Position numbers and translations under genes: made by a program | In this document: one piece after another, positions 11,386 to 44,909 of the stretch | Numbering within the stretch: the stretch's first letter is position 1 | How the letters are laid out: every line of letters begins with the position of its first letter | From: an uncultured Vampirovibrionales bacterium | GTDB lineage: Bacteria > Cyanobacteriota > Vampirovibrionia > Vampirovibrionales > Vampirovibrionaceae | Direction of reading: 5' to 3' | NCBI GenBank assembly: GCA_964387265.1 | Contig: CAYLWC010000003.1 | Coordinates: forward strand, 43,468-107,467 | DNA length: 64,000 bases | Notes under the pieces: model-generated | Seen by the model: the letters and a program-made list of their open reading frames with translations, nothing else | Databases searched by the model: none | What the model was told of the DNA's origin: nothing

Positions 11386-11483
11386 CGGAAAGCCCCTCGA
11401 TGTAGCGATTACTTTGATAGGCCCTTTCTACCACGGAGAAAAGGCTGAAACAAGGTACAAATGGCTAAGATTGTGAAGGTTCT

Positions 11484-13040: not shown

Positions 13041-13084
13041 GGCGATTCCTTTAAGTTTTTAATGCTTTGGCATGTTTTATGGGG

Positions 13085-13696: not shown

Positions 13697-13705
13697 GGTT
13701 TTTCT

Positions 13706-15643: not shown

Positions 15644-15680
15644 CTGTTTTCATTATACGGGGGCTATGCTATCGGGGCCA

Positions 15681-17435: not shown

Positions 17436-17562
17436 GACCTTGCTTCCAACAGAAAGAATTATAGCCCATCGTATTACAAAGGTCGGATGCAGGGGTGGGA
17501 TATTTTCGGATTGTAAACGGGTGAGACTGGATAGGGCAAGCGGTCTGATTTTCTAGAGAAAA

Positions 17563-18228: not shown

Positions 18229-18334
18229 TCCACAAAATCATGATTTAAAATACGGACAAACATTGGGGGATGATCCTGTTTGAAGAATCATCCTTTGATT
18301 ATAAATTGAATCCGGTTTCTGTATAGACCTGGTT

Positions 18335-18664
18335 TTAGGCGTGGATTTTAATCACCAGAAAAACGCAGTCGGTTTCAGCCTTAGCGCCATGGGGAGTGCC
18401 GGAAGGCATCTCAACAGAAGTACCCGGCTGCATGGTGTATTCTTCATCCCCGGCAGTAAACTGGGCCTTGCCCCGGAGCCAGATGACCAACACATGAGCG
18501 TCCGTCTTATGACAATTCAGCACTGTCTCTGCTTTCAGGGTGACTTGCTTGGTGATGACGTTGCCGACTTCTAACACGTTGGACAAGGTAGGTTTGTTCT
18601 CCTGAAACGTCGGTTTCTCTAAAAAGTTTCGATATGTAATGGATTGGGTTGCTGATGGGCTCAT
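18335..18664 (-). CDS. Cupin domain protein
   Basis: Cupin motifs around HKTDAHVLVIWLRG and SGTPHG. Confidence 0.6.
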   Translation of the reverse strand: MSPSATQSITYRNFLEKPTFQENKPTLSNVLEVGNVITKQVTLKAETVLNCHKTDAHVLVIWLRGKAQFTAGDEEYTMQPGTSVEMPSGTPHGAKAETDCVFLVIKIHA

Positions 18665-19102
18665 GGTTTCCTCCCTCCTTTAAATGGTGAATACCGACAT
18701 CATAGTCAGGTTGAGGGGTGGGTTGCATTGACTAAGATCAAGTGCGCTAAAAAAGAAGCCCGAAACCAGTGGGCTTCGGGCACTAAGGATGTGTTTATCC
18801 TTATGAATAAAGAAGTCTGATTATTGAGGGGTCATGTCTTTTTGGAGTCTGGAGAACGCCAATATGGATAAATTACTATGTATGTAATTTCAAATCAATG
18901 GGGTTTTTCAAAATATCTGGATCCATATCAATATCACTCCGTTTTACCGGTGATTCTATGGTTTTCTGCAAAGGCAAAGTGGCTTAGACAGCTCAGGAGC
19001 CCCAGGAGATTTAAGCGGATGGACTCGCCCGAGAACAGCCCGCCATTTGGATCCGTTTGTATAATAGGGGGCAACCGGGGGTCTAAAGGGAGGTAGCACA
19101 AT

Positions 19103-19801
19103 ATGCGGAGCTTGCGCTTCCATACGTTAAACCAGTGGGTAAGTCGGATAAAGGCTGATAACTTGATTCTGTTGTTATGGCTCTCCCTGCTGGCGTTCGC
19201 CCAAGTGACCTTCTATGTCATGATGGACTATGTCGTGATGGACAGTGAACTGTCTGGTTATGATCGGCTTATTGTTGATGGGGCGAGTCAGCTGGCATCT
19301 CCGTTGATGATCCTGTGCATGCTGTGGATTACCACGCTGGGATCCCCATACCTGGTTCTGGGAACGTCTGCCATACTATTTATTAGCTTTACTTTGGGGA
19401 GGCGATACCGGTCTGCCTTGCTTTTTCTGCTTAGTCCAGGGGGTGGCCTTTTTTTGACTGGGGTCATGAAAGATCTGATGGATCGAGCCCGTCCCATGAT
19501 CAGCCATCCCATCTACCAGGAAACAGGTTATAGTTTTCCCTCAGGCCATGCGACGGTGGCGGTCTGTTTTTACGGGTTGCTGATTTATTGGATCATCAGC
19601 TCGGCTGGCCGGCCGCTTGGATTACAAAAGCGGATGCTGGTAGGAGCGCTTTTCCTTTTAATTTTGGCGATTGGCGTTTCCAGGGTCTATCTGGGTGTCC
19701 ATTTTCCCTCGGATGTGCTGGGTGGATTTTATTTGGGGCTGTTTTGGCTGAGTTTTTGTCTCTGGCTGAGCAGAGGGTGGCTGCTTCAGAGGTTGTTGTG
19801 A
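19103..19801 (+). CDS. PAP2 family phosphatase (membrane)
   Basis: KDLMDRARP, PSGHA and SRVYLGVHFPSDV acid-phosphatase motifs. Multiple TM helices. Confidence 0.8.
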   Translation: MRSLRFHTLNQWVSRIKADNLILLLWLSLLAFAQVTFYVMMDYVVMDSELSGYDRLIVDGASQLASPLMILCMLWITTLGSPYLVLGTSAILFISFTLGRRYRSALLFLLSPGGGLFLTGVMKDLMDRARPMISHPIYQETGYSFPSGHATVAVCFYGLLIYWIISSAGRPLGLQKRMLVGALFLLILAIGVSRVYLGVHFPSDVLGGFYLGLFWLSFCLWLSRGWLLQRLL

Positions 19802-19912
19802 CTAACCAGCTGGGTAAAATTTATACCCGGTCTGCTGATTGCCTTTTTCGGATCTGCCCATAGTAAGGTAGAGGGGGATCTTTGGAATAAGACAAAAACA
19901 GAGAGGGAGGTT

Positions 19913-20269
19913 ATGATGTCGGAATTGGACCTGACGCCGGATTTGCAACAGATTGTCGGGTATTTTAATGAGATAAGCCCATTGACTGGCAAGGTGCGGC
20001 TGGAATTTTGCGTGAGGCGCCGGATTCCTGACAGCGATCTCAACAGCATTATTGAGGCATATCTGTATCCGTTGGATGAGGAGGCCAGACGATGTTTGGG
20101 GGATCAGCCATGGCTCCATATGCAAGTTATGGGAGATACCATTAACCCGGCCCTGATGAATTATGACTGGGTGCTTCATTTGAAAAAACCGTATTCTGGA
20201 CCGGGTCAAACGGGTATGTCAGAAATTTTGGAGGTTCATGTTGAGCAGGCGCGTTTATCTCATGTATAA
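19913..20269 (+). CDS. Hypothetical protein
   Basis: GAGGGAGG RBS 6 nt upstream. No recognisable domain. Confidence 0.5.
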   Translation: MMSELDLTPDLQQIVGYFNEISPLTGKVRLEFCVRRRIPDSDLNSIIEAYLYPLDEEARRCLGDQPWLHMQVMGDTINPALMNYDWVLHLKKPYSGPGQTGMSEILEVHVEQARLSHV

Positions 20270-20427
20270 ATTCGTTGTCCATGGCGCAGGTGCTTCTTTA
20301 GACAGTTTGATCATTGTCAAACGCCAGATTGGGGCCTAAAATAGAGCGAGTATTTACCAGGGCGGGAAAGGCCGAGCCAGGCCAATTGACCCTCATCTGG
20401 CGTGTGGAAGGAATCTTGGAGGGGGAA

Positions 20428-20847
20428 ATGATGAATAAGGATCAGTTTGTCAAGAAAGTTCAGGAATTGACCCATCTGCCGACTCGGGAAATGGCGGAAG
20501 AAGGGATGCAGATCGTGTTGAGCCTGCTGAGTCATCGGCTGACGCCGGAGGAGGCCAAGGATGTCGAATCTCAGCTCCCGACGGATATGAAAAGTATCTG
20601 GAACAGCGATACCTGGATCACCAATTTCTTGAGTATTTCACGGCAGGCTCAGTTGAAATATCGAAAAAAAGAAGAATTATATTCCCTGATCGACAACGAG
20701 TTAAGCAAGACCAATTTGCCCATTGGGGCAGAACATTTGGCACTGGCAGTTTTTCACGTGTTAAAAGAGCAGATCACGGAAGGGGAAATCCAGGATATTG
20801 CCGCTCAATTGCCCGAGGATATTGAAGAGGTCTGGCAGGTTGCTTAA
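20428..20847 (+). CDS. DUF2267-like protein
   Basis: Two tandem helical repeats with the EEA/Q-LP-D pattern typical of DUF2267. Start moved to ATG 20428 after a GGAGGGGGA RBS. Confidence 0.55.
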   Translation: MMNKDQFVKKVQELTHLPTREMAEEGMQIVLSLLSHRLTPEEAKDVESQLPTDMKSIWNSDTWITNFLSISRQAQLKYRKKEELYSLIDNELSKTNLPIGAEHLALAVFHVLKEQITEGEIQDIAAQLPEDIEEVWQVA

Positions 20848-21183
20848 ATGAAAGAAGGAGAAGGTGAGATGACACATGTGGTACAGGCAGAAATTTCCGT
20901 GGAGCCGATGGGAACCGAGTCAACCAGCATCAGTAATTTTGTAGCCGCCAGTGAAGACGTACTGCAGGATTACCCCGATGTTCGTTACCAGATTCATGCC
21001 ATGTCCACGGAGCTGGAAGGCGAGTTGCACCGGGTCTTTAAAGTGATCGAGCGGATGCATGAAGCCCCATTTCAACAGCAGGCCAAGCGAGTGGTAACCA
21101 CCATCCGCCTGGATGATCGCCGGGACCGGGAAAACTCCATGAAGCAAATGGTTAATAGTGTCCAGCAAAAGGCGCAACTATAA
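20848..21183 (+). CDS. MTH1187/YkoF (DUF77) family protein
   Basis: About 100 aa ferredoxin-like fold. Pattern V...I...P...S..S....VA.....L matches the YkoF/MTH1187 family. It directly abuts the previous stop. Confidence 0.5.
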   Translation: MKEGEGEMTHVVQAEISVEPMGTESTSISNFVAASEDVLQDYPDVRYQIHAMSTELEGELHRVFKVIERMHEAPFQQQAKRVVTTIRLDDRRDRENSMKQMVNSVQQKAQL

Positions 21184-27165: not shown

Positions 27166-28176
27166 GTGATGAGGTGTATATCCATGTGGCGTCTAATCTC
27201 CTGCGGGCTTGCACTATTGGTGCTGGTCTCCCTGAACCTTACGGCCCAAAGCCAAGATAATGCGTACTTTCCTTCTGACAACTTTTTCCGTAGCCGGAAT
27301 ACATTGCCTGACTCCCAGTTGGATTTTACCGATGACACGCAGGAATCCTGTTGCGCCGATGACGCGCCAGTTGTAGACCCCAACGCCCCCACTGGATCCT
27401 CGTTTAAAGCGGAGAACCCCTCGTACACCGATTACGGCAACGATCCCAAGCTGGTGGAATGCGAAAAAATGCAGGGCTTATCGGCTGTGGGGCAAATGGG
27501 GGAAGCGCCGGTTCAGGTGAATGTGGCCCATAACCTGCCTATTAAATCCAACAGCACCAACGTGTCTGTGAAGAAAAAAGCGGAGTTTTATACCGACCCC
27601 CGTCGGAACCTGACGACCAGCTTCCATATTTCTACCCAGGGTGGGGCCAGTCTGGTGCAACTACAAGATGTGACCCATTACTCAGTGTGTATGGGCCGGG
27701 GCGGAAACAGTCTCCGGGTTCATAATACCGATAATGGCTCGATCTTGACTTATAACGGGAATGATCATGTGGTTCTTGGAGGAAACAACACCAACATGCT
27801 CACCCGAACCGGGGCTGGGGATGACGTCATTGAAATAGCCCAGACTGTGACGCAACCTAGTGGTTGGAAAGCCAATAGCATGTTTAAAACCGCGATCAGC
27901 GGGAGTGATGGTGTGGATACTCTGGTAATTAACGCCACACCTCCCGGAACCAAGTGGTGTCATATCGGGGGATACACCCTGTTTGGTGAGTACTTTTACG
28001 TGGTGGAATTCGCATTGCCTCCCAGCGCAACGGAAGGCCCCCGTCGCCAGAGGATGAGCATTGGCCAATCCGTGGAGTATGTGGTTTTTAAGGGTCGGAA
28101 ATATGCGACCCGAGAGTTTTTAGCCCATGGAACGCCCTTTGAGGTTGCCGGGTTCTTCAGTGACCGGAGTTTCTAG
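27166..28176 (+). CDS. Secreted hypothetical protein
   Basis: Signal peptide (LISCGLALLVLVSLNLTAQS). Thr/Gly/Asn-rich beta-type sequence. No assignable domain. Confidence 0.5.
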   Translation: MMRCISMWRLISCGLALLVLVSLNLTAQSQDNAYFPSDNFFRSRNTLPDSQLDFTDDTQESCCADDAPVVDPNAPTGSSFKAENPSYTDYGNDPKLVECEKMQGLSAVGQMGEAPVQVNVAHNLPIKSNSTNVSVKKKAEFYTDPRRNLTTSFHISTQGGASLVQLQDVTHYSVCMGRGGNSLRVHNTDNGSILTYNGNDHVVLGGNNTNMLTRTGAGDDVIEIAQTVTQPSGWKANSMFKTAISGSDGVDTLVINATPPGTKWCHIGGYTLFGEYFYVVEFALPPSATEGPRRQRMSIGQSVEYVVFKGRKYATREFLAHGTPFEVAGFFSDRSF

Positions 28177-30701
28177 CGCGCGGTCTTATTCAGGGCTTTG
28201 CTTGATTTTGCGCTTTGCAAGCCGTCCAGTCCGTAAATTTGAATCGGTTCGCTGAAACCCTTGATGTTGGTTTTTCCCAAATCACGGACTTCGCTCCACT
28301 CCTGAACGCTCAGGTAGGTGTTTTCGCTGATGATAATATCGGCATCGACGTGACGGGTGAGGGTTTCCAGACGAGAGCCCAAGTTGACCGAAGAGCCCAT
28401 GACCGTAAAGTTCTTAATGTCATCGGAGCCAAAGTTGCCAACAAACATGGTGCCTGTACTGATGCCAATCCCATGCTTGAGCTGAGGTTTCCCTTCTTTG
28501 GCCCATTTTTGGTTTAATTCATCAAGCGCCAGTTGCATTTCAAGGGCAGCCCGGCAAGCCATTTCCGCATGGTTGGGCATGGCCGTGGGGGCGCCAAAGA
28601 AGGCCATCAGGGCATCCCCCATGTATTTGTCGTATGTTCCGCCATTTCGAAGTACTGCTTTGGTCATGGCGTTAAAGTACTCGTTGAGCTGCTGTACAAT
28701 CAGCTCAGGCTCGGCGTTTTCAAATTGGGGGGTAAAATTATGAATGTCTGAAAACAAGACCGTAAGTTCTTTTCGGGCCCCGTTCAGGTCGCTCATGGCG
28801 GTATTGGGATTATCCAGAATCTGATCCATAAGCTGGGGAGAAACGTACTTTGAAAAGATATTGGTGAGCAGACGTTTTTCCCGGTCCTGAATGTAATAAC
28901 GGTAGACCAATCCGCCCATTAGAGAAAAGCCAAAAAACAGGGTTGGCCAGATGAGTGGGATCCAGAGCGCTTCCAGATCAAAAATCATAAAGTTATAAAG
29001 CCAGAACAGGATGGCTCCGGCCAGGCCTGCAATCAATCCTAAATACAGCCGTGGGATAAAGACAACGGAATAGACAATAAAGCACGATACGGCTAAGACA
29101 ATGGCAAGCGTGAGCAGAAATGGGGACTTTTGAACAAACTTTTGATCATGTAAAAACATATCCATCACCGTGGCCATGTATTCCGGTCCATAGGTGATGC
29201 TGCCCATAGGGGTTCGGTGAATATCTTTGACCGTTTCTCCATAGATGACGATCTTGCCCTTCAAAGATAACATGCCGCTTTCCGGGACACCGGGAATGCG
29301 ATACAGAGAGGGGGTAAAGTTATTGGGGCTATCCATCTTGACCAGGATATCCTTGACGGAGATAAATCGATATAGATGGCCGTAGCCCAGCTGGCTGTTA
29401 GCCGTATCAGAGCGGATGGATGAGAATTCCTCATAACTCAGGGGGAGTCCCGCCTCTTCAAATTGTTTCTTGACAAGCAGCGCCGGGTTCCGCCAATTGA
29501 CGATGACATTACGACCATCCACCAGGTTGATTTGCCGTTCTCCCAGGTAAAGCGATTGAGGCGTGTATCGAAAAGGCGGGTTCCCTAAAATATCCAGCAC
29601 CGGGCTTATGGGCAACATAGAGAAAAACTGGCCGTTATAGGACTTATAAAAGACCGGGACCTTACGCAAGTAGGCATCCTCGTCATAGTCAATGGAGGAA
29701 ATACCAAAGCCCTTGGCATGTTGGATAAACCGGGTTTCAAGCGGGTTGATCCAGCAATAACTGAAGTTGTTTTCCGCTTCCAGGGTTGGGAGCTCCTGAA
29801 AATAAAATGGAATGGCGCTTCTGCTGATCAGATCCAGATACTTCGGCTGATCGCTATACATGGCTTGATACATTTTCTGAAGGCAGATTTTACCGTAGCC
29901 TTCCACCAGCGGATTATTTTCTGCGCTGAACATGACCTGTTGAGGACTGGAAGGCCGATACAGTAACGTATCTGGAGGCATTTGCGTTCGACACAGGCTG
30001 GACCAGATGTCCCGAAGGTTTCCAGGGCTCAGGGGCATGGTGAATTCCACGATAGAATAGGGCTGCTCCAGGCCCAACGTGTTGTATCCCATCTGGCAAC
30101 CCGGACCCATTTTCTGGAACAGTCTGGCCTGGGTCTTGAGGAAGGGGAAAAAGTATTCGCTGAAGATCGCATGCCGAAAATTGGTAATGACCCTGCCTTG
30201 ATCCGTGGTGTTTTGTTGAGCGAGAAAGTCCTTCATTTTGAGGCTGACCGGACTGGAAAGGTAGATGTTTCCCGCTTGCTGAATCACCTGCTCCAGCGGT
30301 GCGTCATTGTCCTCGCTTTGAGGCCAGGTTAATTCCACGTCCACCGCGATGGCCTTGACGCCTTGATCGGTCAGATACTGGAAAATCCGGGCCAGTTGTT
30401 TTCTGGGAAGGATGCGTCCGGTAATGCCGATTTCCGGGTGTCTGCCCACGTACTCATCTGTGGATTTGTCCAGGGCAACGACTACAATTTGATCGGAGGG
30501 TGTCAGATGGCTGGCGCGGTATCGGATGCGTTGATCCAGCAGCGCCAACTCCATGCGCTCAGCAATGGTTTGAATATTGTTGGAGTTGAGTCCAATGGTC
30601 AGGATGATCAGGCCGATAAAGCCCCATAGAAACAAGGGAAAGAACTTGAAAGCCACCAGGGGCTTTAGCCACTTCCGGCTTAAAAAACGTCGGATCTCCA
30701 T
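28173..30701 (-). CDS. CHASE2 sensor-containing class III adenylate/guanylate cyclase
   Basis: N-terminal TM, periplasmic CHASE2-like region, 3 to 4 TM, then a C-terminal cyclase homology domain (FSDIHNFT...YMGDALMAFFGAP...GIGISTGTMFVGNFGS). Confidence 0.85.
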   Translation of the reverse strand: MEIRRFLSRKWLKPLVAFKFFPLFLWGFIGLIILTIGLNSNNIQTIAERMELALLDQRIRYRASHLTPSDQIVVVALDKSTDEYVGRHPEIGITGRILPRKQLARIFQYLTDQGVKAIAVDVELTWPQSEDNDAPLEQVIQQAGNIYLSSPVSLKMKDFLAQQNTTDQGRVITNFRHAIFSEYFFPFLKTQARLFQKMGPGCQMGYNTLGLEQPYSIVEFTMPLSPGNLRDIWSSLCRTQMPPDTLLYRPSSPQQVMFSAENNPLVEGYGKICLQKMYQAMYSDQPKYLDLISRSAIPFYFQELPTLEAENNFSYCWINPLETRFIQHAKGFGISSIDYDEDAYLRKVPVFYKSYNGQFFSMLPISPVLDILGNPPFRYTPQSLYLGERQINLVDGRNVIVNWRNPALLVKKQFEEAGLPLSYEEFSSIRSDTANSQLGYGHLYRFISVKDILVKMDSPNNFTPSLYRIPGVPESGMLSLKGKIVIYGETVKDIHRTPMGSITYGPEYMATVMDMFLHDQKFVQKSPFLLTLAIVLAVSCFIVYSVVFIPRLYLGLIAGLAGAILFWLYNFMIFDLEALWIPLIWPTLFFGFSLMGGLVYRYYIQDREKRLLTNIFSKYVSPQLMDQILDNPNTAMSDLNGARKELTVLFSDIHNFTPQFENAEPELIVQQLNEYFNAMTKAVLRNGGTYDKYMGDALMAFFGAPTAMPNHAEMACRAALEMQLALDELNQKWAKEGKPQLKHGIGISTGTMFVGNFGSDDIKNFTVMGSSVNLGSRLETLTRHVDADIIISENTYLSVQEWSEVRDLGKTNIKGFSEPIQIYGLDGLQSAKSSKALNKTAR

Positions 30702-30757
30702 AATCCCTATTGTAAAGGAGCGTTGGAAAAAGGGGCTCCGTGATTTAACGGAGTTCT

Positions 30758-31672
30758 TTATTTCAACTGCTCAATACTACCGGCGGTTTCGTTGGTGATT
30801 TTGGGCACTTCTGGGGTGTTGATGGTTTGATCCGGTGGAGAGCCTGCGTAGTTGACGTAGCCGCCCCCGTTAGTAATATTGTGGTCAAAGGATAGGTAGC
30901 GATCCGCGCTCATTTTACTGATAAGGCCAGAGTAAATGTCGACATTATCCTTTAAAGACTGGTATTTGGCGCTGTCTGTGGTTTGCATGCCAGAAAGAGT
31001 GGCTTCAAACTCATTATAGGCGCTGGCCAGGTTGTTGGTTAGTGTGCGCAAAGCTTCGGTATCGTTAATGGCTATTTTTTTGCCATTGGCGTCGCGAAGT
31101 ACATTGCCGTATTCATCGGTGACGGTCTTCCACCAGCTGTTTTCTATTTCCAGCCTGTTTTCCTCTTCCGCAATGCTTCGGCCAATATCGGCCATCTGCT
31201 GGAGCATGGCGCTTAATTGAGGATCCAGTATCTCGCCATTGGCTTTTTCCCATTGTTCAATCAGGCGTTCCATGCTGCCCGCCAAGTATCGGGAGGTTTC
31301 GCTAATATCCCCCTGCACGCCTGCGGTCGCTGTCTCGCCCAACGAACTGGCGCCCATGGCACCGTATCCATCGGGGAAGGTGATTAAGGCTTGGCCGTTG
31401 GCGTCAATATAAATTTTGCTGGTGTTAATGATTCGTCCGGTTTCCGGGTTATATTGTGCATTGCTGGGAGAACCAGATAGTTTCCCTGTGGTTGGCCCGG
31501 CAACCAACGCTTTTCCCGGTAGACTGTTGGCGCCGGGAATGGTGTTCCCGAAGTTGGTGTTCAGTGTGTTCCCAAGGAGAAGAATTGCAGGAATAGCCGC
31601 CAATATGATAAGCGCGCCTACCAGTCCATATTCACCCAAACTTTGGCCATGGTGATATTGTTTATGAAACAT
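30758..31672 (-). CDS. Flp/Tad-type class III prepilin-leader protein with large C-terminal domain (paralog A)
   Basis: Start trimmed to MFHK at 31672 (AAGGA RBS). Leader HHG/QSLGEYGLVGALIILAAIP fits G/xxxxEY. About 300 aa Thr/Ser/Asn-rich domain. Conserved AYNEFEATLSGM and YSGLIS blocks shared with B and C. Confidence 0.6.
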   Translation of the reverse strand: MFHKQYHHGQSLGEYGLVGALIILAAIPAILLLGNTLNTNFGNTIPGANSLPGKALVAGPTTGKLSGSPSNAQYNPETGRIINTSKIYIDANGQALITFPDGYGAMGASSLGETATAGVQGDISETSRYLAGSMERLIEQWEKANGEILDPQLSAMLQQMADIGRSIAEEENRLEIENSWWKTVTDEYGNVLRDANGKKIAINDTEALRTLTNNLASAYNEFEATLSGMQTTDSAKYQSLKDNVDIYSGLISKMSADRYLSFDHNITNGGGYVNYAGSPPDQTINTPEVPKITNETAGSIEQLK

Positions 31673-31709
31673 AGGGTGGGTTCCTTTTTGTAGAGCTTTA
31701 CTTGGCGTT

Positions 31710-32630
31710 TTACCTGGAGCGGGTTCGATTTGCGCGATTTCCGGCTTTAGTGAATTGCTCCGCCGATGTTCCGATCCGATCAGAAGAGTGTCGGGTAACT
31801 TGTACTGCCTGCTCAGAGAGTTGGCTGACATTGGCAGGCTTGTAACCGACGAGGGCGCTTGATACCCCTGCTTCTGAATGATGGAAAGACATGTATTTAT
31901 GATAAGACACGTTGGAAATGACGCCTGAGTAGCCATATACAACTTCCTTAACCTCTGAGGGCGCATTGGGCATGCTGTATAGTTGGCTCATTACGTTATT
32001 GTAGGTTTCTGCGAAGCTTTTGGTTCTATTGACCAGGCCGTCTTTGCTGTTGAGTCGATTACCAAAGGAGGATGAATTAATACCGACATTTTGCATGTAG
32101 TTGTCCAGATAGGCTTCTTCCTTGGCAATGGCATGGCCCTTGTCATGGAGTTCTTTAATCATACCCACCACCCCAGGATCCAGTGGGTTTCCGTTCTCAT
32201 CTGTAAATTCTTCGACAAAGGTTAGCATTTGATTGGCCAGATCACTGCTGACTTCATCACCGCGGCTCCCGGCGGTGCTTTCCTCATGACCACCGCTGTT
32301 TAAGGAACTGGCATTGGGATAGGTCAACGTTTGGGTTGCAGGATCGTAGTATCCCCCGAATTTACCTGTCAGGTTACTGGTATCGGGTCCCGTGTTGTTA
32401 AGCGTCAATGGGTTTTCTTTGGTATAGCGAAGAGATCCCGCCGTTGGAGCGTTGCTTACCGCAACAGTTGAGCCTGATTTTCCGGTAGTTAGTATGCCAG
32501 CAATCGTGCCGCTGATTGTGCCGCCAAATCCGAATAGAACGGGTACGGCCAGTAATGCGACCAGGGCTCCGATGACAATATACTCATTAACCCCTTGTCC
32601 AGAGGAAAAAAGCGGCTTGTTCTTCTTCAT
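31710..32630 (-). CDS. Flp/Tad-type class III prepilin-leader protein with large C-terminal domain (paralog B)
   Basis: MKKNKPLFSSG/QGVNEYIVIGALVALLAVPV leader. TYNNVMSQLYSM and YSGVIS blocks. Confidence 0.6.
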   Translation of the reverse strand: MKKNKPLFSSGQGVNEYIVIGALVALLAVPVLFGFGGTISGTIAGILTTGKSGSTVAVSNAPTAGSLRYTKENPLTLNNTGPDTSNLTGKFGGYYDPATQTLTYPNASSLNSGGHEESTAGSRGDEVSSDLANQMLTFVEEFTDENGNPLDPGVVGMIKELHDKGHAIAKEEAYLDNYMQNVGINSSSFGNRLNSKDGLVNRTKSFAETYNNVMSQLYSMPNAPSEVKEVVYGYSGVISNVSYHKYMSFHHSEAGVSSALVGYKPANVSQLSEQAVQVTRHSSDRIGTSAEQFTKAGNRANRTRSR

Positions 32631-32732
32631 GGCTTGCTGTGCTTCCTTTATCTCAATCCAACTCTAATTAGTCTCTCATGAGGCTTTATTAATGGAATGA
32701 TTGTATCTGCAGTTTAGGCTTGTTGTTACTGC

Positions 32733-33551
32733 TTAACGTTTAACGTGTCGGACGACATCGGCTGTCTGTTCAAGACCTTCGGCAGCCTGACGGGTCATTT
32801 TGGTAACATCTCGATAATTCTTGACGTTTTGGAACTTTTCAACAGAGGGTGGGTTGCCGACGACTGGGACTTTGACCTTGTCAACGCTGTAAATGATTGC
32901 AGAGTTAACGGTTGTAATTACCCCTGAATAGTCGTCAATGGTTGATTTTAATTCGTCATAGTGCTGACCATTTGCGGTTTTGCTGAGTTGGGAAAGTTGT
33001 GAAGAAAGCTCATCGTAAGACGACTTGTAGTCCTTGCCCAGTTCAACCAATGTTTTGGTATCGTTGATGCTTCCGTCACTGCTCAATTTATCGTCCTGCA
33101 TGCGGCCGATTTCATGACCCCGCTCAGCTAAGGTATCAATTTTCTGAGCAAGATCCGGGGGAAGCGGTTCCCCTGTTTTTTCTTCCCAATCGCGGGCAAT
33201 GTTTTGTAACCGGGTGGCCAGTTCCTGGGTAACCCCGGATTCACCGGCGGTTTCGGTTTCACCATTGAAGCCGCTATAGGTGTAGGTCCCATCCGGGTTG
33301 TAAATCACTTTCCCCGCTTTGCCTGCGGTCATGCTCATCTTTTGGAAATAGGCTGCCCTTTCCGCAACGCCCGCTGGCAGGTTTGCTGCAGCGGCAGTAC
33401 TGTTCGTTTTCGAGAACATTTGGCTCATCTTGATGTTGATTTTTCCTCCAAGCAAGCCATACAGTGGGATTGCCGCAAGTAGCACGAGCGCACCCACAAC
33501 AATATATTCATTCAAACTTTGTCCTGATGTTTTTGAAATGGTCTGCATCAT
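32733..33551 (-). CDS. Flp/Tad-type class III prepilin-leader protein with large C-terminal domain (paralog C)
   Basis: MMQTISKTSG/QSLNEYIVVGALVLLAAIP leader. SYDELSSQLSQL and YSGVIT blocks. ORF trimmed to the internal Met. Confidence 0.6.
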   Translation of the reverse strand: MMQTISKTSGQSLNEYIVVGALVLLAAIPLYGLLGGKINIKMSQMFSKTNSTAAAANLPAGVAERAAYFQKMSMTAGKAGKVIYNPDGTYTYSGFNGETETAGESGVTQELATRLQNIARDWEEKTGEPLPPDLAQKIDTLAERGHEIGRMQDDKLSSDGSINDTKTLVELGKDYKSSYDELSSQLSQLSKTANGQHYDELKSTIDDYSGVITTVNSAIIYSVDKVKVPVVGNPPSVEKFQNVKNYRDVTKMTRQAAEGLEQTADVVRHVKR

Positions 33552-33756
33552 GATGTTTGTTTCTCTTCTTTTCCTATTACGCATGGTTTCGGCGGTTTAT
33601 TTATTTCGCTGAAGGATATCCGGGCTCTTTTGTTACAAATCAGTAACATTTAGGTAAAATGGGATCAAAAAAATAGGCCCATGCCCTGTTATGGTCGAGA
33701 CAAGCGCCTATTTTTTCCACTGAGCGATCTTATGGGATCAAAATAGAATGCAAAAG

Positions 33757-34350
33757 TTATTCCGGCTTGGTGGGTTTATCGTGACCTTTTAACTGAAGAC
33801 CGCTGTTCGTTTCTGCAATGCCCTGTTCCAGAAAATCCACTGGTGGTTTGTATGGGGTCCCTCGCAGTACCCGTTGCTGGATTTCATAACGGACCCTGGC
33901 TAGAAATTCCTCAACGTCCCGAGTTCCTCTGGAAATATAGAGCGTTGTAATTTCGGCCACATCTTCAATAGAGGGATCAGATTGAAACTGATAGCAGGAT
34001 TTAAGGTATTCCTGGATATAACTTACCAGCGACACGATGTGATCGGCCATAGAATCCTGGTTTTCTTCAGACAAAATATACAGGTAATTCATTGCTTTAT
34101 GAAGCTGTGGATTTTTGTCGTATTCCCTGCGCTTGTTTTTTGACTTGTGCAATCCCAATACCTTGTCAGCTCCCAGGGTTTTAAAGGAGTTGACCTTTTC
34201 ATTAACACAAAACTCCTTGTTAGCCAGGATCATAATACCCTCGCTCAAGATGGACTGAATTTCATCCGGCAGGATGATCATCAGTTTGACAGATTGGGAG
34301 AGTTTGGGATGCCGATCATACCAGCGTTTGGGGGGGACAAAGTTATTCAT
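33757..34350 (-). CDS. Hypothetical protein
   Basis: 197 aa, no TM and no recognisable domain. Upstream of the Flp-like cluster on the same strand. Confidence 0.5.
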   Translation of the reverse strand: MNNFVPPKRWYDRHPKLSQSVKLMIILPDEIQSILSEGIMILANKEFCVNEKVNSFKTLGADKVLGLHKSKNKRREYDKNPQLHKAMNYLYILSEENQDSMADHIVSLVSYIQEYLKSCYQFQSDPSIEDVAEITTLYISRGTRDVEEFLARVRYEIQQRVLRGTPYKPPVDFLEQGIAETNSGLQLKGHDKPTKPE

Positions 34351-34452: not shown

Positions 34453-35256
34453 CTAAGCGTCCTGAATGTAAGCCTGCATGGTGCTAAGCGCATGCTCAGC
34501 CCGTTGGAGCTCCCGCCCGAGGTAAGCCGCATGATCCAGCCTGGAGATAATCCCTTGTTCAATGGCGGGAAAGTATAATTCGGCGGCGCGCTTGCCTTCG
34601 ATGATGGTTCCAAGAACGCCTTTATTATTATAGTGCTCCAGTATAATCCGGCTTCGGACGTGATCCACGTAGATAACAAAATACCCGCAGGGATCCAGCA
34701 CAATATGATCAGGCGCCTCTCCCTGAATGGGTTCGACCTGTTGGCTTGGGAGAAAGGCTTCTGCTGGGCCAGGCGCCTCAGCGCGACATTGACGGACTCG
34801 CTCCAGAACCTTTTCCACTTCATTGCACCCAACCATGTCGATCACGTCAACGTACTCCCGGAAATGGGCAATAGCCTCACTGGAAAGATTTTTAATAATG
34901 GGACGCTTCCCCTTGGCGCCGATAATTCGCCCGCTGGTATCAATGCCGTTTTTGGCCAAGGCCAGAAAAGATTGTCCCGGTAAGTGACCAATGGCCTGTT
35001 GTCCGTCCGTGCCGCAAAGCAAGATGAACCGGATGCTGGGGTTACTGAGGGCGTAACTGATAATTTGCTCAATCCCCAGGTTTTCTGTGTGCAATGACCC
35101 CACAACCACGCCCTGGAGTTCCTCTTCCTTCATCAGCTGATCCCGGAGCTCGTCATTGGTTAGTGTGCAGATGGCTAATGGTTGTGTATCCTGGGCCAAA
35201 TCGCCCAGAAACGACAGTTGGCGCTCATGGTGAGAGGGGGAGATGGGGTCAGACAT
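34453..35256 (-). CDS. MtrA-like (tetrahydromethanopterin S-methyltransferase subunit A homolog, corrinoid-binding) plus DUF4346 protein
   Basis: Recalled methanogen MtrA is collinear with TENLGIEQIISYALSNPSIRFILLCGTDGQQAIGHL...RIIGAKG (from memory: [36 protein letters not shown]...RIAGALG). A conserved His sits at the cobamide-ligand position. C-terminal DPCGYFVIYVD matches DUF4346. Confidence 0.55.
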   Translation of the reverse strand: MSDPISPSHHERQLSFLGDLAQDTQPLAICTLTNDELRDQLMKEEELQGVVVGSLHTENLGIEQIISYALSNPSIRFILLCGTDGQQAIGHLPGQSFLALAKNGIDTSGRIIGAKGKRPIIKNLSSEAIAHFREYVDVIDMVGCNEVEKVLERVRQCRAEAPGPAEAFLPSQQVEPIQGEAPDHIVLDPCGYFVIYVDHVRSRIILEHYNNKGVLGTIIEGKRAAELYFPAIEQGIISRLDHAAYLGRELQRAEHALSTMQAYIQDA

Positions 35257-35326: not shown

Positions 35327-37360
35327 TTACGGGGTGACTGAAGGGGTGTTTTTCAGAGTGTGCCGATAATGCTCCAGCTTCCTCACCAAATCGGGATGGT
35401 GTTGAAGCACATCCGGCCTCTTGGCCTTCAAGGCGGTTAACAGAACTTCAGGAAGGTTGAGAGCTTCATTTCGGGTTAATTTTTCAAAGTAGTCCTGTTC
35501 AAACGTGTTGGATAGACGGAGTGACCAGTTTTGATCGCCGCCTGTTCCCGGCTTGTTGTATGTTTCCCGAATCCCGAAGAAGTCCGGGAAAAAGATTTGT
35601 ACGTGTTGGGAGGGGCTGGCAAAGAGTTCAGCCAGCTTTGCGACCAGAAAGCGGTGGGAATCTTGAAGCAGAGACTGTATGAAATTACCACGGGCATTTA
35701 CATCCGGCTCCAGATCTTCGGCTAGGTATTGGGCATGGGTTTGAGCCTGGCCGTTTTGCCATAGCCGATCGATCCAGTTTCTCAGGGGCTCATTATCATG
35801 GGTTCCCGCCATAACCCAATGCTTGGCCGGGACATTTTTTCCCCGATACAAATGATCCGGCTTCTGGGGATCCACAAACTGGGTTACGCGAACTCCGCTT
35901 AAATCCAGCTGTTCCAAGACCGCCTTGACCGGGTTGGTCAGGGTACCCAAGTCCTCACAGATAATGGCGTCTTTATCCAGTCCTTGTGCCTGGGCAGCCG
36001 CGATGACAATGTTCAGCAGATCTCCGTAACGCTGAACCTGCTCCGGGGTAAGGTGCTGGACTCGACGCTCATCATCCGGCCCGACGGCATGATTGAGGTT
36101 GCTCGGGTCAATTTTGCTGAAGGGATGAAGGTCTGGGTGTTCAGGGGACGAGAACAATCTGCCCGCGCCGGATTCCGGTCGGGGAGACTGCCCGGCACGA
36201 TAGACCCAAGGGTCGATAAGACCAATAATATGATCAATTCGCACACCGCCTGGATTTTCCAGAAAGATTTTCTCAAAAAGGGTTTTGAGCAATTCGCCAG
36301 CGGGACCGAGGCTGCCATCCGGCTGAAATAGCTTGGCAGGATCTAACACCGGGAAGCCCCACGCTTGCCCGTCTTGAGAAAAATAATCCGGGGGAGCCCC
36401 TAGCTTATAGCCGTCCAGAAACAACGCCTGGTAGGCCCAAACATCCCGATCGGAAAAGGCAACCTGACGATCGGCAATAAGATTCATGCCTGTCTGTCGG
36501 GCAAAAGCTTTCATCTCTTCTTTCTGAGCAAAGGCGATAAACTGGCAGAACTCGTAGAAGGCGATATCATCGGCATGTTGTGTCTTGATTTCCTGAATTC
36601 GGGCTTGAGTGGCCTGTTCTTCCTGGGCATTGCTAGGACTGTACAGGCGTTTATCCAGCTCACTGGGCCAGATGGGCCAGTAGTCGTTTTGGTGGTGAAT
36701 CGAAAGCGCCTCATACAGGCTATCCCGTTCCAGCCAGGCTTGGTTTTTCAGCCGGAACGCCTGGAAGTCGCGCTCCAGTTTATTAAGTGCGTCCACGTCC
36801 GTTTGGGGTAAGCGTTGCAAGTTCTGGCGCTTTTGCTGATAGGTCTGGAAGGATTCTCGTAACGCCCGTTCCTGCGCTCGGTAGATATAGCCGTAAGCGG
36901 TCCGAGGCTTACCGGCGTGGGGTGGCTGTTGGGGGGTATTGCGGACAATGTCATCCAGGGTCTGGGTACTTAAAATCCCAGCCCATTTGGGGTCATTCGC
37001 CAACATGGCCAGATCCACAAACAGAGGGTTGTTGGAAAAGGAGGTGCTAGTATAGGGGGAAGCGTCAATGGCCTTGGTTTTTCCTCCTGGACCTAGCTGA
37101 ACACTGTTAAATCCCATGGTTTTCAGAAAGTTAAACAGGCGTTTGGCCCCCTTTGAATTGGGGGAACCGATGCCGGTGTCTTCCCCCGGCTCTGACGGGA
37201 AGCTGGCCCCATGGATGATCATGGCCAGGTTCTTTTTACCCAGCAGACTTAAGGTGTCCTCAATGGTTTTTTGATACTCGCTCAGCTCGTTGGGTTGTAA
37301 GGCCCGGCCGAATTTTGCTTCGGGGGAGGTGGCTGAAATAGAGCTTGGGGTCGATGACAT
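35327..37360 (-). CDS. malQ: 4-alpha-glucanotransferase (amylomaltase, GH77)
   Basis: IHGASFPS...GIGSP N-terminal signature and GH77 catalytic blocks. Start placed at ATG 37360 with a CAGGAGCC RBS. Confidence 0.85.
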   Translation of the reverse strand: MSSTPSSISATSPEAKFGRALQPNELSEYQKTIEDTLSLLGKKNLAMIIHGASFPSEPGEDTGIGSPNSKGAKRLFNFLKTMGFNSVQLGPGGKTKAIDASPYTSTSFSNNPLFVDLAMLANDPKWAGILSTQTLDDIVRNTPQQPPHAGKPRTAYGYIYRAQERALRESFQTYQQKRQNLQRLPQTDVDALNKLERDFQAFRLKNQAWLERDSLYEALSIHHQNDYWPIWPSELDKRLYSPSNAQEEQATQARIQEIKTQHADDIAFYEFCQFIAFAQKEEMKAFARQTGMNLIADRQVAFSDRDVWAYQALFLDGYKLGAPPDYFSQDGQAWGFPVLDPAKLFQPDGSLGPAGELLKTLFEKIFLENPGGVRIDHIIGLIDPWVYRAGQSPRPESGAGRLFSSPEHPDLHPFSKIDPSNLNHAVGPDDERRVQHLTPEQVQRYGDLLNIVIAAAQAQGLDKDAIICEDLGTLTNPVKAVLEQLDLSGVRVTQFVDPQKPDHLYRGKNVPAKHWVMAGTHDNEPLRNWIDRLWQNGQAQTHAQYLAEDLEPDVNARGNFIQSLLQDSHRFLVAKLAELFASPSQHVQIFFPDFFGIRETYNKPGTGGDQNWSLRLSNTFEQDYFEKLTRNEALNLPEVLLTALKAKRPDVLQHHPDLVRKLEHYRHTLKNTPSVTP

Positions 37361-37428
37361 GGCAGGGCTCCTGAATATGGGGGGCAACGGTGATGTTAGC
37401 ATTGGTTTAATTTTTCTCTGTAATTACC

Positions 37429-41828: not shown

Positions 41829-44800
41829 CTAGGGGTAGCTGGGCAGATAACTTGGCAGGTAGGGGGTGTCAATTTCAAAGAGGTGGAAACGGCCTGGCCC
41901 CAGGTCTACCTTCAATTGGTTTTCACCACGGATAAAGTGACTGGAGCGGCCGTACGGCAAGGATAAATCTTTCAAGGATTGAGTCTGACGGAACCCTGGA
42001 ATATGAAGGGTATTGCTATGACGAGCATTTACATCTTTATTGGCAACCACCAGCAAAGTTTTACCATTGAGATGTCGGGCGAAAGCAATGATCTGGTTGT
42101 TTTCCGCGTTTTGTACCGGGACGGGGATAAACAGACCTTTGCTCAGAACATCCTGGTACTGTTTCCGGGTAGATAACATATGCTTGAGGAAGATTCCAAT
42201 TTCTGGATGGTTTCCTTTCGGGCGCTTGGCGAAGTTAAAAATGTCGAAATGTCCTGAAAAACCTGTTGTAAAACCATCTAAAATATAAGGGTTGGTCAAG
42301 GGCTGCGTTGCCATTAGGCCCGAGGCGAGGAAGGACATAGTGGTGCCTCCATTGGTCATCAGGGCCGGATCATCATGGGTGAGGAAGGAGCCGATAAAGG
42401 ATTTTCCGCTCCCTGCCCGGTTAAACATCTGATAGCCATCTTTCAGGTATTGCATATACTCATTGGCGTTGCGCATCTTATGGAAGATGTGGAATTGGCC
42501 ATAGATGGAATCAAACCCACTTTTCAGCAGTCCTTCCGGGACGTCCCGGGGGATATTTTCCATGGGGGAGGCGTCCTCCTCGGTGTAGCTTTCAGCCAGC
42601 CACCCCAGGTGTGGGTACTTGCTTGTAAAGTGTTGCCAGAACCACAGGGGCCGAGCGCGGGCTACATCGACCCGAAAGCCATCCACTCCGACTTTATTGA
42701 CCATCAAGTCAAAAAAGTCTGCATAGTATTTCACCAGGGCCGGGTTGGTTTCAAACATGGCAATATCAATCCAGTTGGCCGGCGTTTTCAGGTTTCCGTT
42801 TCGATCCCTGGCAATCAGGTCCGGGCGGGCTTGGGCCAGATCAATGGAGGCGCAACTGGGGACATCTGCCATCACATGAATCCCTCGCTTATGCGCTTCC
42901 TGAACAAAAATACGGGCTTCATCCAGAACACTGAGCCTATTCCCTGGTGTATCATATTCTGGGTTGAGTTCCAGGTATGAGGCCGGGGCATAGACACTAC
43001 CCGCTTCCCCGAGACGTTTTTGATCTCCAGGTGGGTGGATGGGAAGAAGGTGAATAGTATTCACGCCCAGGTCTTTCAGTTCATCCAGTTTGGAAATGGC
43101 CGAGAGAAACGACCCGCTTTCCCCATGGTTAAATGAGATACGGCCATCGTTATTCTTGTCTTCGGCGCCAAACGTCCGAAGATGCAAAGCGTAGATAACG
43201 GCCTGGTTATTTTTAAAGAGATTTTTGAGTTGGTTTTGCCACGGATAAGGCGGACGTGGGGGCATGGACTGCATAACCGGCGTAGGCTGTATGACCCGGC
43301 TTGCGGGCTGGGAGGGATAAGATCCGTAATAAGGTCTATAATAAGGGTTTATTCCAATTCCAGGAGTGGTTGTAAACGGTCGTTGCGGAATGGCGCTAGG
43401 CTGACTCCAGCCAAACTTGGGCTGTGATGTTGGCGGAGGAGTGGCGGCGGGTTGATTTGTGGCGGGTTTTGGCGCCCCACGACGGCCCACGAAAAATTGG
43501 GTATACAACATGGTTGCCAGTAGCATGCCACCACCCAGATAGCCAATAATTCTTTTTTGCCAGAGTGTTCTGAGTTTGGTGTCTTTGAGGGCGCTCAGCA
43601 AATGCTGGCTTGGGGAAGCGCCCAGTCGGTTAAAGGCTTTGCCAAACTGGCCCTGGTTAATCAATTGGCGGGCTTCCTGGTATAACTGCTCGTTACCCGC
43701 CAGTTTCTTGGCTTGTTCCACTTGCCCCTTTTCTACCAGGCTTTGGATCTCTGGTAGCCCAGGCTTATCCATTAGCGCCTTGAGTGTTTGAACAGTGGGT
43801 TTACCCTTATCAAGTTCTTGGAGAAGAGCCTCGTAATGGCTGACCGTTGCCCTGGCGTTTGTGATTCGCTCTTCAATCAGTTGTTGTGCATTGGCGTGTA
43901 TTGACTTATCCAGCTGAATCCCCTGTTTTTTGAGAAGTACAGACGCTTCTTCGGATAAATGGCTCAGGAAAACCCGTTGTTTTTTTAGGTATTGTTGCAG
44001 CTCCTGACGCCGAGAAGCCTGCTCAGCTTGCCCCAGGGTTTCAAAGTGGCTCAAAAGCGTTTTCTTTTGTTCATGAGCCGGGGCGTTGACAATATCCTGT
44101 ATACTAAACGCAGTATTAAGGCCGGTTTTATTAACCATGTTGACCCCAAAACCTTTCCACCATTGGGAAATCTTGGAGTTTGGAATCTCTCCCACCAGCT
44201 GCCTGACATGGTGTTGGACGTGGTGGGTGAGTTTTTGAGGATCCCGGGTATGGGAGGCCCGGAAAAAGTGGTACATGGTATTCATCCGGTTTAAAAGGTG
44301 GATTGTCGGTTGTTGTAATTGGTCACAAAGTAGCCCTGAAATCACTGGTGTGGCAGGGCCTGCAACCAACATCCACCAGGTCTTGGACTGGGTGGCAATT
44401 TCCCGAATGCGTTCTTCCGTAATTTCTCGGCGGTTGGGGAGATGGCGAGGTATTTTCAGTTTGTCAGCGATACGAATAATCTCATAATCTGGTATCAGGT
44501 GCAGGGGGAGGTACTTGGGATCCTTGTAGAGATTATGTCGTTCCTTGTTGGTGTTGATATAGTCTTGATTCAGGTTCACGCCGGTACGACCCCGAACCAG
44601 TCCATTAATAATTTTGGGGGTGGCGGCCATGGCGCCAAACCAACTTAGAAAACCCAGATATTCCCCAACGCCAAAGACGCGCCGAGTCAGGCCAAACGTT
44701 GCCAGGGTCGCTATGCCCAGACCGGCTCCTCTCTTCAGATTATCATCCAGGATGGCCAGATTGTTATCGCTGATGGGCTTTGGGCCAATGTCGGTTAGCG

Positions 44801-44909
44801 TGGAGGCCACGCGGAGCTGCGTACTGGCAAAATCCTTGAACGTTTTGGGTGGGGCCAGGTGAGCATAGGGAGGAGACACGTTACTTTGGGAGGAGGTCAG
44901 GAAGGTCAT
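41829..44909 (-). CDS. Membrane-anchored GH13 alpha-amylase fused to an uncharacterised N-terminal (about 470 aa) domain
   Basis: C-terminal GH13 catalytic domain with GVDGFRVDVA (nucleophile), WLAESYTEE (acid/base) and FLTHDDP. TM helix IIGYLGGGMLLATMLY and a Pro-rich linker. The N-domain is homologous to the upstream 351 aa protein. Confidence 0.8.
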   Translation of the reverse strand: MTFLTSSQSNVSPPYAHLAPPKTFKDFASTQLRVASTLTDIGPKPISDNNLAILDDNLKRGAGLGIATLATFGLTRRVFGVGEYLGFLSWFGAMAATPKIINGLVRGRTGVNLNQDYINTNKERHNLYKDPKYLPLHLIPDYEIIRIADKLKIPRHLPNRREITEERIREIATQSKTWWMLVAGPATPVISGLLCDQLQQPTIHLLNRMNTMYHFFRASHTRDPQKLTHHVQHHVRQLVGEIPNSKISQWWKGFGVNMVNKTGLNTAFSIQDIVNAPAHEQKKTLLSHFETLGQAEQASRRQELQQYLKKQRVFLSHLSEEASVLLKKQGIQLDKSIHANAQQLIEERITNARATVSHYEALLQELDKGKPTVQTLKALMDKPGLPEIQSLVEKGQVEQAKKLAGNEQLYQEARQLINQGQFGKAFNRLGASPSQHLLSALKDTKLRTLWQKRIIGYLGGGMLLATMLYTQFFVGRRGAPKPATNQPAATPPPTSQPKFGWSQPSAIPQRPFTTTPGIGINPYYRPYYGSYPSQPASRVIQPTPVMQSMPPRPPYPWQNQLKNLFKNNQAVIYALHLRTFGAEDKNNDGRISFNHGESGSFLSAISKLDELKDLGVNTIHLLPIHPPGDQKRLGEAGSVYAPASYLELNPEYDTPGNRLSVLDEARIFVQEAHKRGIHVMADVPSCASIDLAQARPDLIARDRNGNLKTPANWIDIAMFETNPALVKYYADFFDLMVNKVGVDGFRVDVARARPLWFWQHFTSKYPHLGWLAESYTEEDASPMENIPRDVPEGLLKSGFDSIYGQFHIFHKMRNANEYMQYLKDGYQMFNRAGSGKSFIGSFLTHDDPALMTNGGTTMSFLASGLMATQPLTNPYILDGFTTGFSGHFDIFNFAKRPKGNHPEIGIFLKHMLSTRKQYQDVLSKGLFIPVPVQNAENNQIIAFARHLNGKTLLVVANKDVNARHSNTLHIPGFRQTQSLKDLSLPYGRSSHFIRGENQLKVDLGPGRFHLFEIDTPYLPSYLPSYP

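Follow-up and report, generated by a model that had tools for sequence, protein, structure and literature searches.

Three tandem Vampirovibrionales genes predicted to encode extended Flp-type prepilins with a tethered helical bundle

The stretch of DNA analysed here (the window) comprises 64,000 nucleotides (nt) from an uncultured Vampirovibrionales bacterium (NCBI GenBank assembly GCA_964387265.1, contig CAYLWC010000003.1, positions 43,468 to 107,467 of the forward strand). It carries three tandem paralogous genes, A, B and C, whose products appear to join an Flp-type prepilin N-terminus to a linker, a four-helix bundle and a C-terminal tail. We propose, with a probability of about one half, that the three proteins are accessory Tad pilins that would display the tethered bundle as a binding module. 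The model is based on the conservation of the prepilin motif, the co-occurrence with short Flp genes, the layout of a tether followed by a domain, and the single family member located next to a tad operon.

32733-33551, minus strand: paralog A, predicted extended Flp-type prepilin, 272 amino acids (aa) (open reading frame (ORF) list, paralog alignment, AlphaFold2 model)
31710-32630, minus strand: paralog B, predicted extended Flp-type prepilin, 306 aa (ORF list, paralog alignment, AlphaFold2 model)
30758-31672, minus strand: paralog C, predicted extended Flp-type prepilin, 304 aa (ORF list, paralog alignment)

The three genes are complete and arranged head-to-tail on the minus strand, at the positions where a first-pass annotation of the sequence had placed three tandem paralogs. 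Pairwise BLASTP comparisons give 27-30% identity over 270-303 columns, with E-values of 4e-22 to 3e-26, which is far above chance. A, B and C can be aligned end to end with 42 invariant columns and are true paralogs. In their predicted mature form all three are acidic (isoelectric point 4.5-5.8). The strings quoted in the first-pass annotation were all located in the ORFs: the N-terminal segments G/QSLNEYIVVGALVLLAAIP, G/QGVNEYIVIGALVALLAVP and G/QSLGEYGLVGALIILAAIP, the acidic blocks SYDELSSQLSQL, TYNNVMSQLYSM and AYNEFEATLSGM, and the YSG(V/L)I(T/S) block.

The N-terminal pilin module

Each of the three proteins begins with a leader, a G/xxxxEY motif and a hydrophobic helix. In paralog A these elements are located as follows.

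33522-33551, minus strand: leader MMQTISKTSG with the Gly (-1) at its end, predicted cleavage site G/QSLNEY (sequence, family motif statistics)
33402-33521, minus strand: predicted Flp pilin module (residues 11-50) with Glu+5, Tyr+6 and a hydrophobic, then amphipathic helix alpha-1 (profile match to 8U1K and 8U2B; AlphaFold2 helix 13-50)

The corresponding leaders are MKKNKPLFSSG in paralog B (site G/QGVNEY) and MFHKQYHHG in paralog C (site G/QSLGEY).

The window proteins are not one-offs. A HMMER profile search run exhaustively against 1.84 billion representative proteins, which provides a reliable count, detected 469 proteins at E <= 1e-3, 31 of them at E <= 1e-10. The search for homologs of the same architecture suggested by the first-pass annotation thus returns a family of hundreds of representatives. 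Among the best 150 of the 469 members, the glycine at -1 is kept in 144 (96%), the glutamate at +5 in 136 (91%) and the tyrosine at +6 in 139 (93%), with the consensus G-Q-S-L-x-E-Y. Conservation of G/xxxxEY in orthologs, by which the first-pass annotation proposed to judge its assignment of an Flp/Tad leader, therefore exceeds 90% in this set.

Comparison with solved structures points in the same direction. The family profile matches Caulobacter PilA (8U1K) with E = 4.3e-7 and a second Flp pilin (8U2B) with E = 2.6e-6, and the match spans residues 3-41 of the 45-residue mature Tad pilin. The family hidden Markov model (HMM) also matches many ORFs of 54-95 aa in Vampirovibrionales and Chloroflexota, often in tandem, at 40-67 bits; the ordinary short Flp pilins of Vampirovibrionales score 50-67 bits. 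Representative short ORFs match the Pfam model Flp_Fap with E = 7e-8 to 3e-3 (18-33 bits, at a cut-off of 32.2). In the loci L022 and L015 the short Flp ORFs are followed by TadE- and TadG-type genes, and the TadE-like neighbours match PF07811 at 22.4 and 27.5 bits, respectively. Since the family HMM matches short Flp ORFs that in turn match Flp_Fap, the window proteins begin with the Flp module of their lineage.

The Pfam models give a less direct picture. Flp_Fap detects the N-terminal 50 aa of paralog C weakly (15.5 bits, E = 0.015) and gives no match for A and B, and the Class_IIIsignal model stays below threshold on the window proteins. For A, B and C there is no match to TadE (PF07811) at E <= 10 and none to Tad/TadG (PF13400), and membership in the TadE or TadG families was rejected on these grounds. 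Of the comparison with Flp_Fap and TadE profiles advised by the first-pass annotation, the Pfam part thus yields a sub-threshold match and a blank, and it is the family profile that matches Tad pilins. By sequence, A, B and C start with the module that makes up the ordinary short Flp pilins of their lineage. Their N-termini are Flp-like and not TadE-like, and constitute genuine class III G/xxxxEY Flp-type prepilin modules, not a chance motif.

The start of paralog A is ambiguous. The protein is identical to a 272-aa entry of the protein collection (P0003, NCBI source) that starts with MMQT at 33551. An alternative in-frame ATG at 33584 (33552-33584) would give a protein of 283 aa with the strongly basic leader MRNRKRRETNI. 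Paralog B is preceded by an AGGAAG ribosome-binding site 11 nt upstream. For paralog C, an AAGGAA ribosome-binding site lies 8 nt before the MFHKQ start at 31672, and the protein matches a 304-aa collection entry (P0002, NCBI source). A longer ORF for C of 402 aa (to 31966) overlaps B and was rejected as an artefact, given the ribosome-binding site and the P0002 match of the MFHKQ start.

The likeness to the Flp/Fap major pilins (Caulobacter PilA 8U1K, Aggregatibacter Flp1, PF04964) includes the short basic leader, the G/xxxxEY motif, a single hydrophobic-then-amphipathic helix ending in an LG..L...F block, and the frequent occurrence as tandem paralogs. Flp pilins are 50-80 aa long, fully helical and lack a globular domain (PMC12075869, PMC10710030). 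A, B and C, in contrast, are proteins of 272-306 aa with a predicted linker, four-helix bundle and tail; they are encoded outside a tad locus and remain sub-threshold for PF04964.

Tether, helical bundle and relatives

AlphaFold2 models of A and B were calculated with family alignments as input, and they agree on the architecture. In the model of paralog A, with a mean predicted local distance difference test score (pLDDT) of 74.8, alpha-1 spans residues 13-50 and is followed by a disordered segment (55-102). Four helices (104-121, 132-157, 163-189 and 195-224) form the bundle, with a pLDDT above 90 in most blocks, and a tail helix is placed with low confidence at 247-268. The model of paralog B (mean pLDDT 73.1) contains alpha-1 at 14-49, a disordered segment at 51-80, a small low-confidence beta element at 94-120, the bundle at 124-247 (again with most blocks above 90) and a tail helix at 271-305. 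For paralog A, the predicted regions downstream of the pilin module correspond to the following positions.

33246-33401, minus strand: Ala/Thr/Gly-rich linker (residues 51-102), predicted disordered (pLDDT 35-50, composition, subfamily alignment)
32880-33245, minus strand: predicted four-helix bundle (residues 103-224)
32736-32879, minus strand: C-terminal tail (residues 225-272) with conserved VG.PP and VT motifs and a predicted terminal helix (alignments, AlphaFold2)

A subfamily motif, Y-(D/N)-P-x-(T/D)-G, lies in the linker of paralog A, and conserved blocks in the bundle are TAG..G, LA..GH.IA..E, Y..L and YSGVI. The models suggest a layout of five parts: the leader, the Flp module with its alpha-1 of about 40 residues, a linker of about 30-70, a four-helix bundle of about 120 and a tail of 40-60 residues. 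The first-pass annotation had assigned the proteins C-terminal domains of 270-300 residues, a figure that corresponds to their total length; the part after the pilin helix measures about 220-255 residues. What it described as a long, Ser/Thr/Asn/Gly-rich domain consists of a low-complexity linker of about 30-70 residues and a remainder that is predicted to be the folded bundle and tail. A specific structural relative of the four-helix bundle was not found.

Family members are similar in size to the window proteins. Among the best 150 of the 469, the median length is 300 aa, the 5th-95th percentile range is 258-364 aa and nearly all fall within 250-390 aa; a few short members of 85-89 aa resemble ordinary Flp pilins. 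The family alignment contains two subfamilies. Members of the window subfamily carry Y-D-P-x-T-G, SGGGGTxTAS, YSGVIS and VGTxP motifs and have no cysteine. The second subfamily has a conserved terminal I-C-x2-G-x5-8-C loop. In the source annotation the members are listed as 'hypothetical protein', and in one case as 'Flp pilus assembly pilin Flp'. Pfam and NCBIfam, toxin families included, return nothing significant for A, B and C.

A word-indexed search under-samples the family. An alignment of 79 sequences retrieved only 2 proteins, as low-complexity words saturate the candidate list, and paralog B alone returned only itself. The C-terminal domain alone returned seven proteins of 272-331 aa, a length that fits the full architecture, in what is an insensitive search.

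The first-pass annotation knew of no described family that matches such proteins. This stands as far as coverage by Pfam and NCBIfam is concerned; large proteins with Flp-type leaders have, however, already been described (PMC12075869, PMC12605009). A conserved family in which a complete Flp module is followed by a tether and a helical bundle is not described in Pfam, in NCBIfam or in the few targeted literature searches we made. The kind of protein itself is not new, with TadE/F/G, the Kil Tips and Flp-fused cargo domains already known.

A further comparison is with TadE, TadF and TadG and with the KilL/M/N Tips of the Myxococcus Kil system (PMC12075869), which are likewise larger proteins with an Flp-type leader and a hydrophobic helix. 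These proteins are thought to customise the end of the Tad pilus by means of exposed domains that vary, and they feature prominently in predatory bacteria (PMC12075869). Their paralogous sets lead to alternative specificities, and in forming such sets they resemble the genes described here. They differ in their TadE or Tad N-termini (PF07811, PF13400), the GxxxxEF motif and the beta-rich, pilin-like heads. They are also heterotrimers, encoded as L-M-N triplets and usually within or near tad loci. Compared with them, the window proteins have a true Flp helix, a predicted disordered tether and an all-helical bundle, and they are paralogs of one another and not an L/M/N set.

The large minor pilins of the type IVb class, TcpB of Vibrio cholerae and CofB of enterotoxigenic Escherichia coli, consist of a pilin module, a flexible linker and extra C-terminal domains. 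They are low-abundance subunits with a proposed position at the pilus tip, have an alpha/beta head and beta-rich extra domains, and are encoded inside the pilus operon. The likeness to A, B and C is an architectural analogy, a pilin with a tether and a functional domain, in a different pilin class; structure and profile comparisons found no sequence or fold similarity to TcpB or CofB.

A precedent for an Flp N-terminus with a C-terminal cargo domain is provided by polymorphic toxins of the ARC/CD38 fold that are fused to Flp (PMC12605009). There the cargo is enzymatic and variable and is accompanied by an immunity gene, whereas A, B and C share a conserved, non-enzymatic-looking bundle and have no immunity-like gene nearby. 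Archaeal type IV pilins also possess a G/xxxxE-type signal, a continuous alpha-1 and a C-terminal domain, and share their packing class with Tad pili (PMC10710030). Their heads are Ig-like beta-sandwiches placed directly on alpha-1. In the window proteins, which are encoded by bacteria (Vampirovibrionales), the head is predicted to be a helical bundle behind a disordered linker.

Genomic context of the family

One family member is linked directly to pilus genes. The protein P0030, encoded in locus L081 of the Vampirovibrionales genome Bin_14, ends 5 nt from the last gene of a tad operon that encodes TadE, RcpC, a secretin, a TadZ-like ParA, a T2SSE ATPase (TadA) and two T2SSF proteins (TadB and TadC). 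A PilD-type A24 peptidase is encoded 9 kb away, and the same arrangement is present in an independent assembly. The locus (131-1153 and 10929-20924 of JBDIVN010000007.1) holds a complete tad operon that includes two unknown genes, and its peptidase has A24_N_bact and A24 domains and is not a short TadV. Three metagenome-assembled genomes (MAGs) contain both long forms and short Flp arrays (L001 with L024, L002 with L026, L010 with L013). The genome of V. chlorellavorus encodes cpaB, cpaC, cpaE, cpaF, tadB, a TadE/G-like gene and several Flp pilins (PMC4451040, Table S3). Tad machinery is present in related Vampirovibrionales genomes.

A genome scan with the pattern GQSL[STA]EY[GA][LIV][IVL] gave 31 loci; Vampirovibrionales and Vampirovibrio account for most of them, and Sericytochromatia and Chloroflexota for some. 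When metagenomes were scanned with the N-terminal pattern, the hits were almost exclusively short Flp genes, and new long members did not appear among them. Four apparent long forms (L038, L043, L051, L064) were rejected, as their ORFs extend too far in high-GC DNA and end in a short Flp. Taxon-labelled full-length members all come from Vampirovibrionales MAGs (L001, L002, L081), with the sole exception of L010, whose MAG (DATNPJ01) is labelled 'Coleofasciculaceae cyanobacterium'. Another contig of that MAG, L013, shows Vampirovibrio-type synteny: it has the gene order of the Vampirovibrio loci L030, L006 and L024 (holA/holB-like genes followed by an Flp array) and near-identical protein strings. 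The label therefore looks wrong, or the bin is mixed.

The number of copies per locus varies. Tandem arrays comprise three genes in the window, at least four in L033, three in L077 and two in L076, and single copies are found in L001, L002, L010, L032, L078, L081 and L083. L079 contains one full-length copy (P0155) and a divergent 261-aa member (15333-16118) about 4.4 kb away. Downstream of P0155 in the same locus (11020-19785) lies a series of seven genes without a Pfam match (230-526 aa), one of them the gene of the divergent member, and the series ends at a 1253-aa ankyrin-repeat protein.

In the window, the array is followed directly by two features.

30736-30753, minus strand: terminator-like hairpin directly after the stop codon of C (consensus scan, pattern match only)
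28173-30701, minus strand: CHASE2 adenylate/guanylate cyclase directly downstream of C (Pfam CHASE2 and Guanylate_cyc)

The hairpin probably ends the A-B-C transcription unit. The cyclase is possibly linked to A, B and C in function. A gene for a CHASE2 cyclase stands directly beside extended Flp-type genes at three independent loci: the window, L011 (7219-9414) and L031 (1086-3125). The three cyclases share 31-32% identity over aligned segments of about 350-405 residues. The proteins with an Flp N-terminus next to the cyclases of L011 and L031 have other C-terminal regions, consisting of PDGS-type repeats or of a long Gly/Ser/Ala/Pro-rich stretch. The recurrent adjacency suggests a link between cAMP and pilins.

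The wider neighbourhood is chromosomal housekeeping and includes DnaE, MalQ, GH57, a copper ATPase and endonuclease V. On the plus strand, a gene for a 336-aa protein (27166-28176) with an N-terminal signal-like hydrophobic segment and no Pfam match is convergent with the CHASE2 cyclase gene, and the 3' ends overlap by 4 nt. Just upstream of paralog A, a 197-aa protein without a Pfam match is encoded on the minus strand (33757-34350). It has a homolog in L013 (10996-11577; 33% identity, E = 1e-30), about 4 kb from the short Flp array of this Vampirovibrio-like MAG. Another gene (34453-35256, minus strand) encodes a fusion of MtrA-like and DUF4346 (pterin-binding) domains, with Pfam E-values of 4e-34 and 3e-23. 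Further on lies an alpha-glucan enzyme cluster (35327-37402, 41829-44909, 46441-50397 and 52180-54333) with a major facilitator superfamily (MFS) transporter alongside. Its products are a GH77 4-alpha-glucanotransferase, a GH57 protein and two proteins of very large size (1026 and 1318 aa) that match alpha-amylase weakly.

Possible roles of the extended pilins

In the model of accessory Tad pilins, we infer that the proteins are cleaved, that they enter a pilus and what the bundle does there. The Flp segment would place the protein in the inner membrane, where a prepilin peptidase of the TadV/CpaA or PilD type would cut after the Gly. Helix alpha-1 would then join a Tad filament made mainly of short Flp pilins encoded elsewhere in these genomes. 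The bundle would be positioned outside the filament on its tether, either at the tip or sparsely along the fibre, and may serve as a binding module for surfaces or prey, with the diverged tandem paralogs as variants. The decorated pilus or pilus-displayed adhesin considered in the first-pass annotation remains plausible.

Several published observations are compatible with this model. In the Tad pilus structure the C-terminus of the pilin forms the outer surface, and the helical symmetry matches that of archaeal pili, whose subunits carry globular domains (PMC10710030). A C-terminal extension on an Flp core is therefore geometrically compatible with the filament. In Bdellovibrio, a peptidase of the PilD type is able to process Flp (bioRxiv 10.64898/2026.07.08.737194), so that a dedicated TadV would not be required. 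The model also agrees with a recent view in which the Tad pili of predators are customised by pilins with variable exposed domains (PMC12075869).

A number of findings weigh against it. Pfam Flp_Fap (PF04964) scores below threshold on the window proteins, with 15.5 bits at best against 32.2. Among 43 ORFs of the window that were scanned against Pfam, namely the three paralogs and 40 neighbouring or larger ones, there was no Tad, type IV pilus or peptidase A24 gene, in agreement with the first-pass annotation, which had seen no tad/cpa genes; with the family HMM, no short Flp gene was found in the window. Of the roughly 12 family loci that were inspected, only 1 adjoins a tad operon, and the others lie among unrelated genes. 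The bundle has no recognisable adhesin fold. Finally, with about 260-295 residues the predicted mature subunit exceeds every pilin for which passage through a secretin has been shown; in the structural work cited, the maximum is 208 residues (PMC10710030).

The large size for secretin passage and the distance of most family loci from tad genes would be accommodated if A, B and C were membrane-tethered periplasmic proteins that never polymerise, for which the Flp module, whether cleaved or not, would provide no more than an anchor in the inner membrane. In the periplasm, the bundle could then, for example, partner neighbouring extracytoplasmic sensors such as the CHASE2 cyclase or a CHASE3 kinase, or present ligands to them, in a manner that may be likened to pilins regulating sensor kinases within the membrane. 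Candidate partners are at hand: the CHASE2 cyclase adjoins extended Flp-type genes in the window, L011 and L031, a CHASE3 histidine kinase adjoins the member in L002, and a hybrid PAS kinase the member in L083. Sensor genes are abundant, however, and some adjacency is expected by chance. Because the cyclase-adjacent Flp genes of L011 and L031 have different C-terminal regions, the association appears to be with the Flp module in general and not with this bundle. The conservation of G-1, E+5 and Y+6 suits processing and filament packing and would be needless in a plain anchor, and one member does adjoin a tad operon. We regard a purely periplasmic role as unlikely.

It is also conceivable that the proteins are major pilins of a separate, thicker filament, archaeal in style with an Flp core, in which every subunit bears the bundle and the paralogs are alternative major subunits. 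Tandem diverged copies are typical of major Flp pilin genes, as in the short Flp arrays of L004, L013, L014 and L026, and B and C each have their own ribosome-binding site. Tad pili share their helical symmetry with archaeal pili, in which every subunit bears a domain of about 100 aa (PMC10710030). Such a filament is nevertheless distinctly unlikely. The same genomes retain short Flp arrays next to TadE and TadG-like genes, a disordered tether of 30-70 residues is unlike a packed pilin head domain, and a fibre of this width would have to cross a secretin of the RcpA/CpaC type as seen in L081.

A role of the Flp module as an export or trafficking handle seems improbable. The bundle would then be a released or delivered effector, for example a membrane-active one, directed against prey or competitors. 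Flp pilin N-termini are among the trafficking domains fused to ARC/CD38-fold toxins (PMC12605009), and the lineage includes a predator (PMC4451040). The C-terminal domain, however, is conserved across the family and not polymorphic, no small immunity-like ORFs are found between or after the A, B and C genes, and the search with the C-terminal domain alone, insensitive as it is, gave only proteins of 272-331 aa.

An ordinary uncleaved signal anchor or Sec-type signal that resembles the Flp motif and is unrelated to type IV filament machinery would agree with the sub-threshold Flp_Fap and Class_IIIsignal scores and with the lack of tad genes in the window, but it is highly improbable in view of the motif conservation above 90% in the best 150 of the 469 members, the significant profile matches to solved Tad pilins over almost the full pilin length and to short Flp genes of the same genomes, and the locus linked to a tad operon.

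The proteins bear on a question about pilus evolution. Tad pili are defined by tiny, head-less subunits. A structure paper of 2023 argues that this feature distinguishes them from every other kind of type IV pilus, and asks by what route head domains were acquired or lost (PMC10710030). For this question, a sizeable family in which a complete Flp pilin is tethered to a predicted folded domain is a natural test case. In a more far-reaching version, which we consider unlikely, A, B and C would be the first bacterial Tad-type pilins with a globular domain of their own, arising from an independent fusion of an Flp core and a helical head. The filament would be polymerised from them or densely decorated with them, predatory Vampirovibrionales would use it in prey recognition, the paralogs would provide interchangeable specificities, and the CHASE2 cyclase would couple it to cAMP signalling. 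If true, this would provide a living example of the fusion step of 'Flp plus separate head domain' that has been discussed for the origin of type IV pilins.

The family, which is unannotated at present, could receive a family model. It also bears on the functionalisation of Tad pili, a recently active topic in predators, as seen in the Myxococcus Kil Tips and the Bdellovibrio Tad system. Vampirovibrionales are non-photosynthetic relatives of cyanobacteria and include an algal predator. Because the taxon-labelled members lie in this group, the proteins of the family are candidate factors for the recognition of prey or surfaces.

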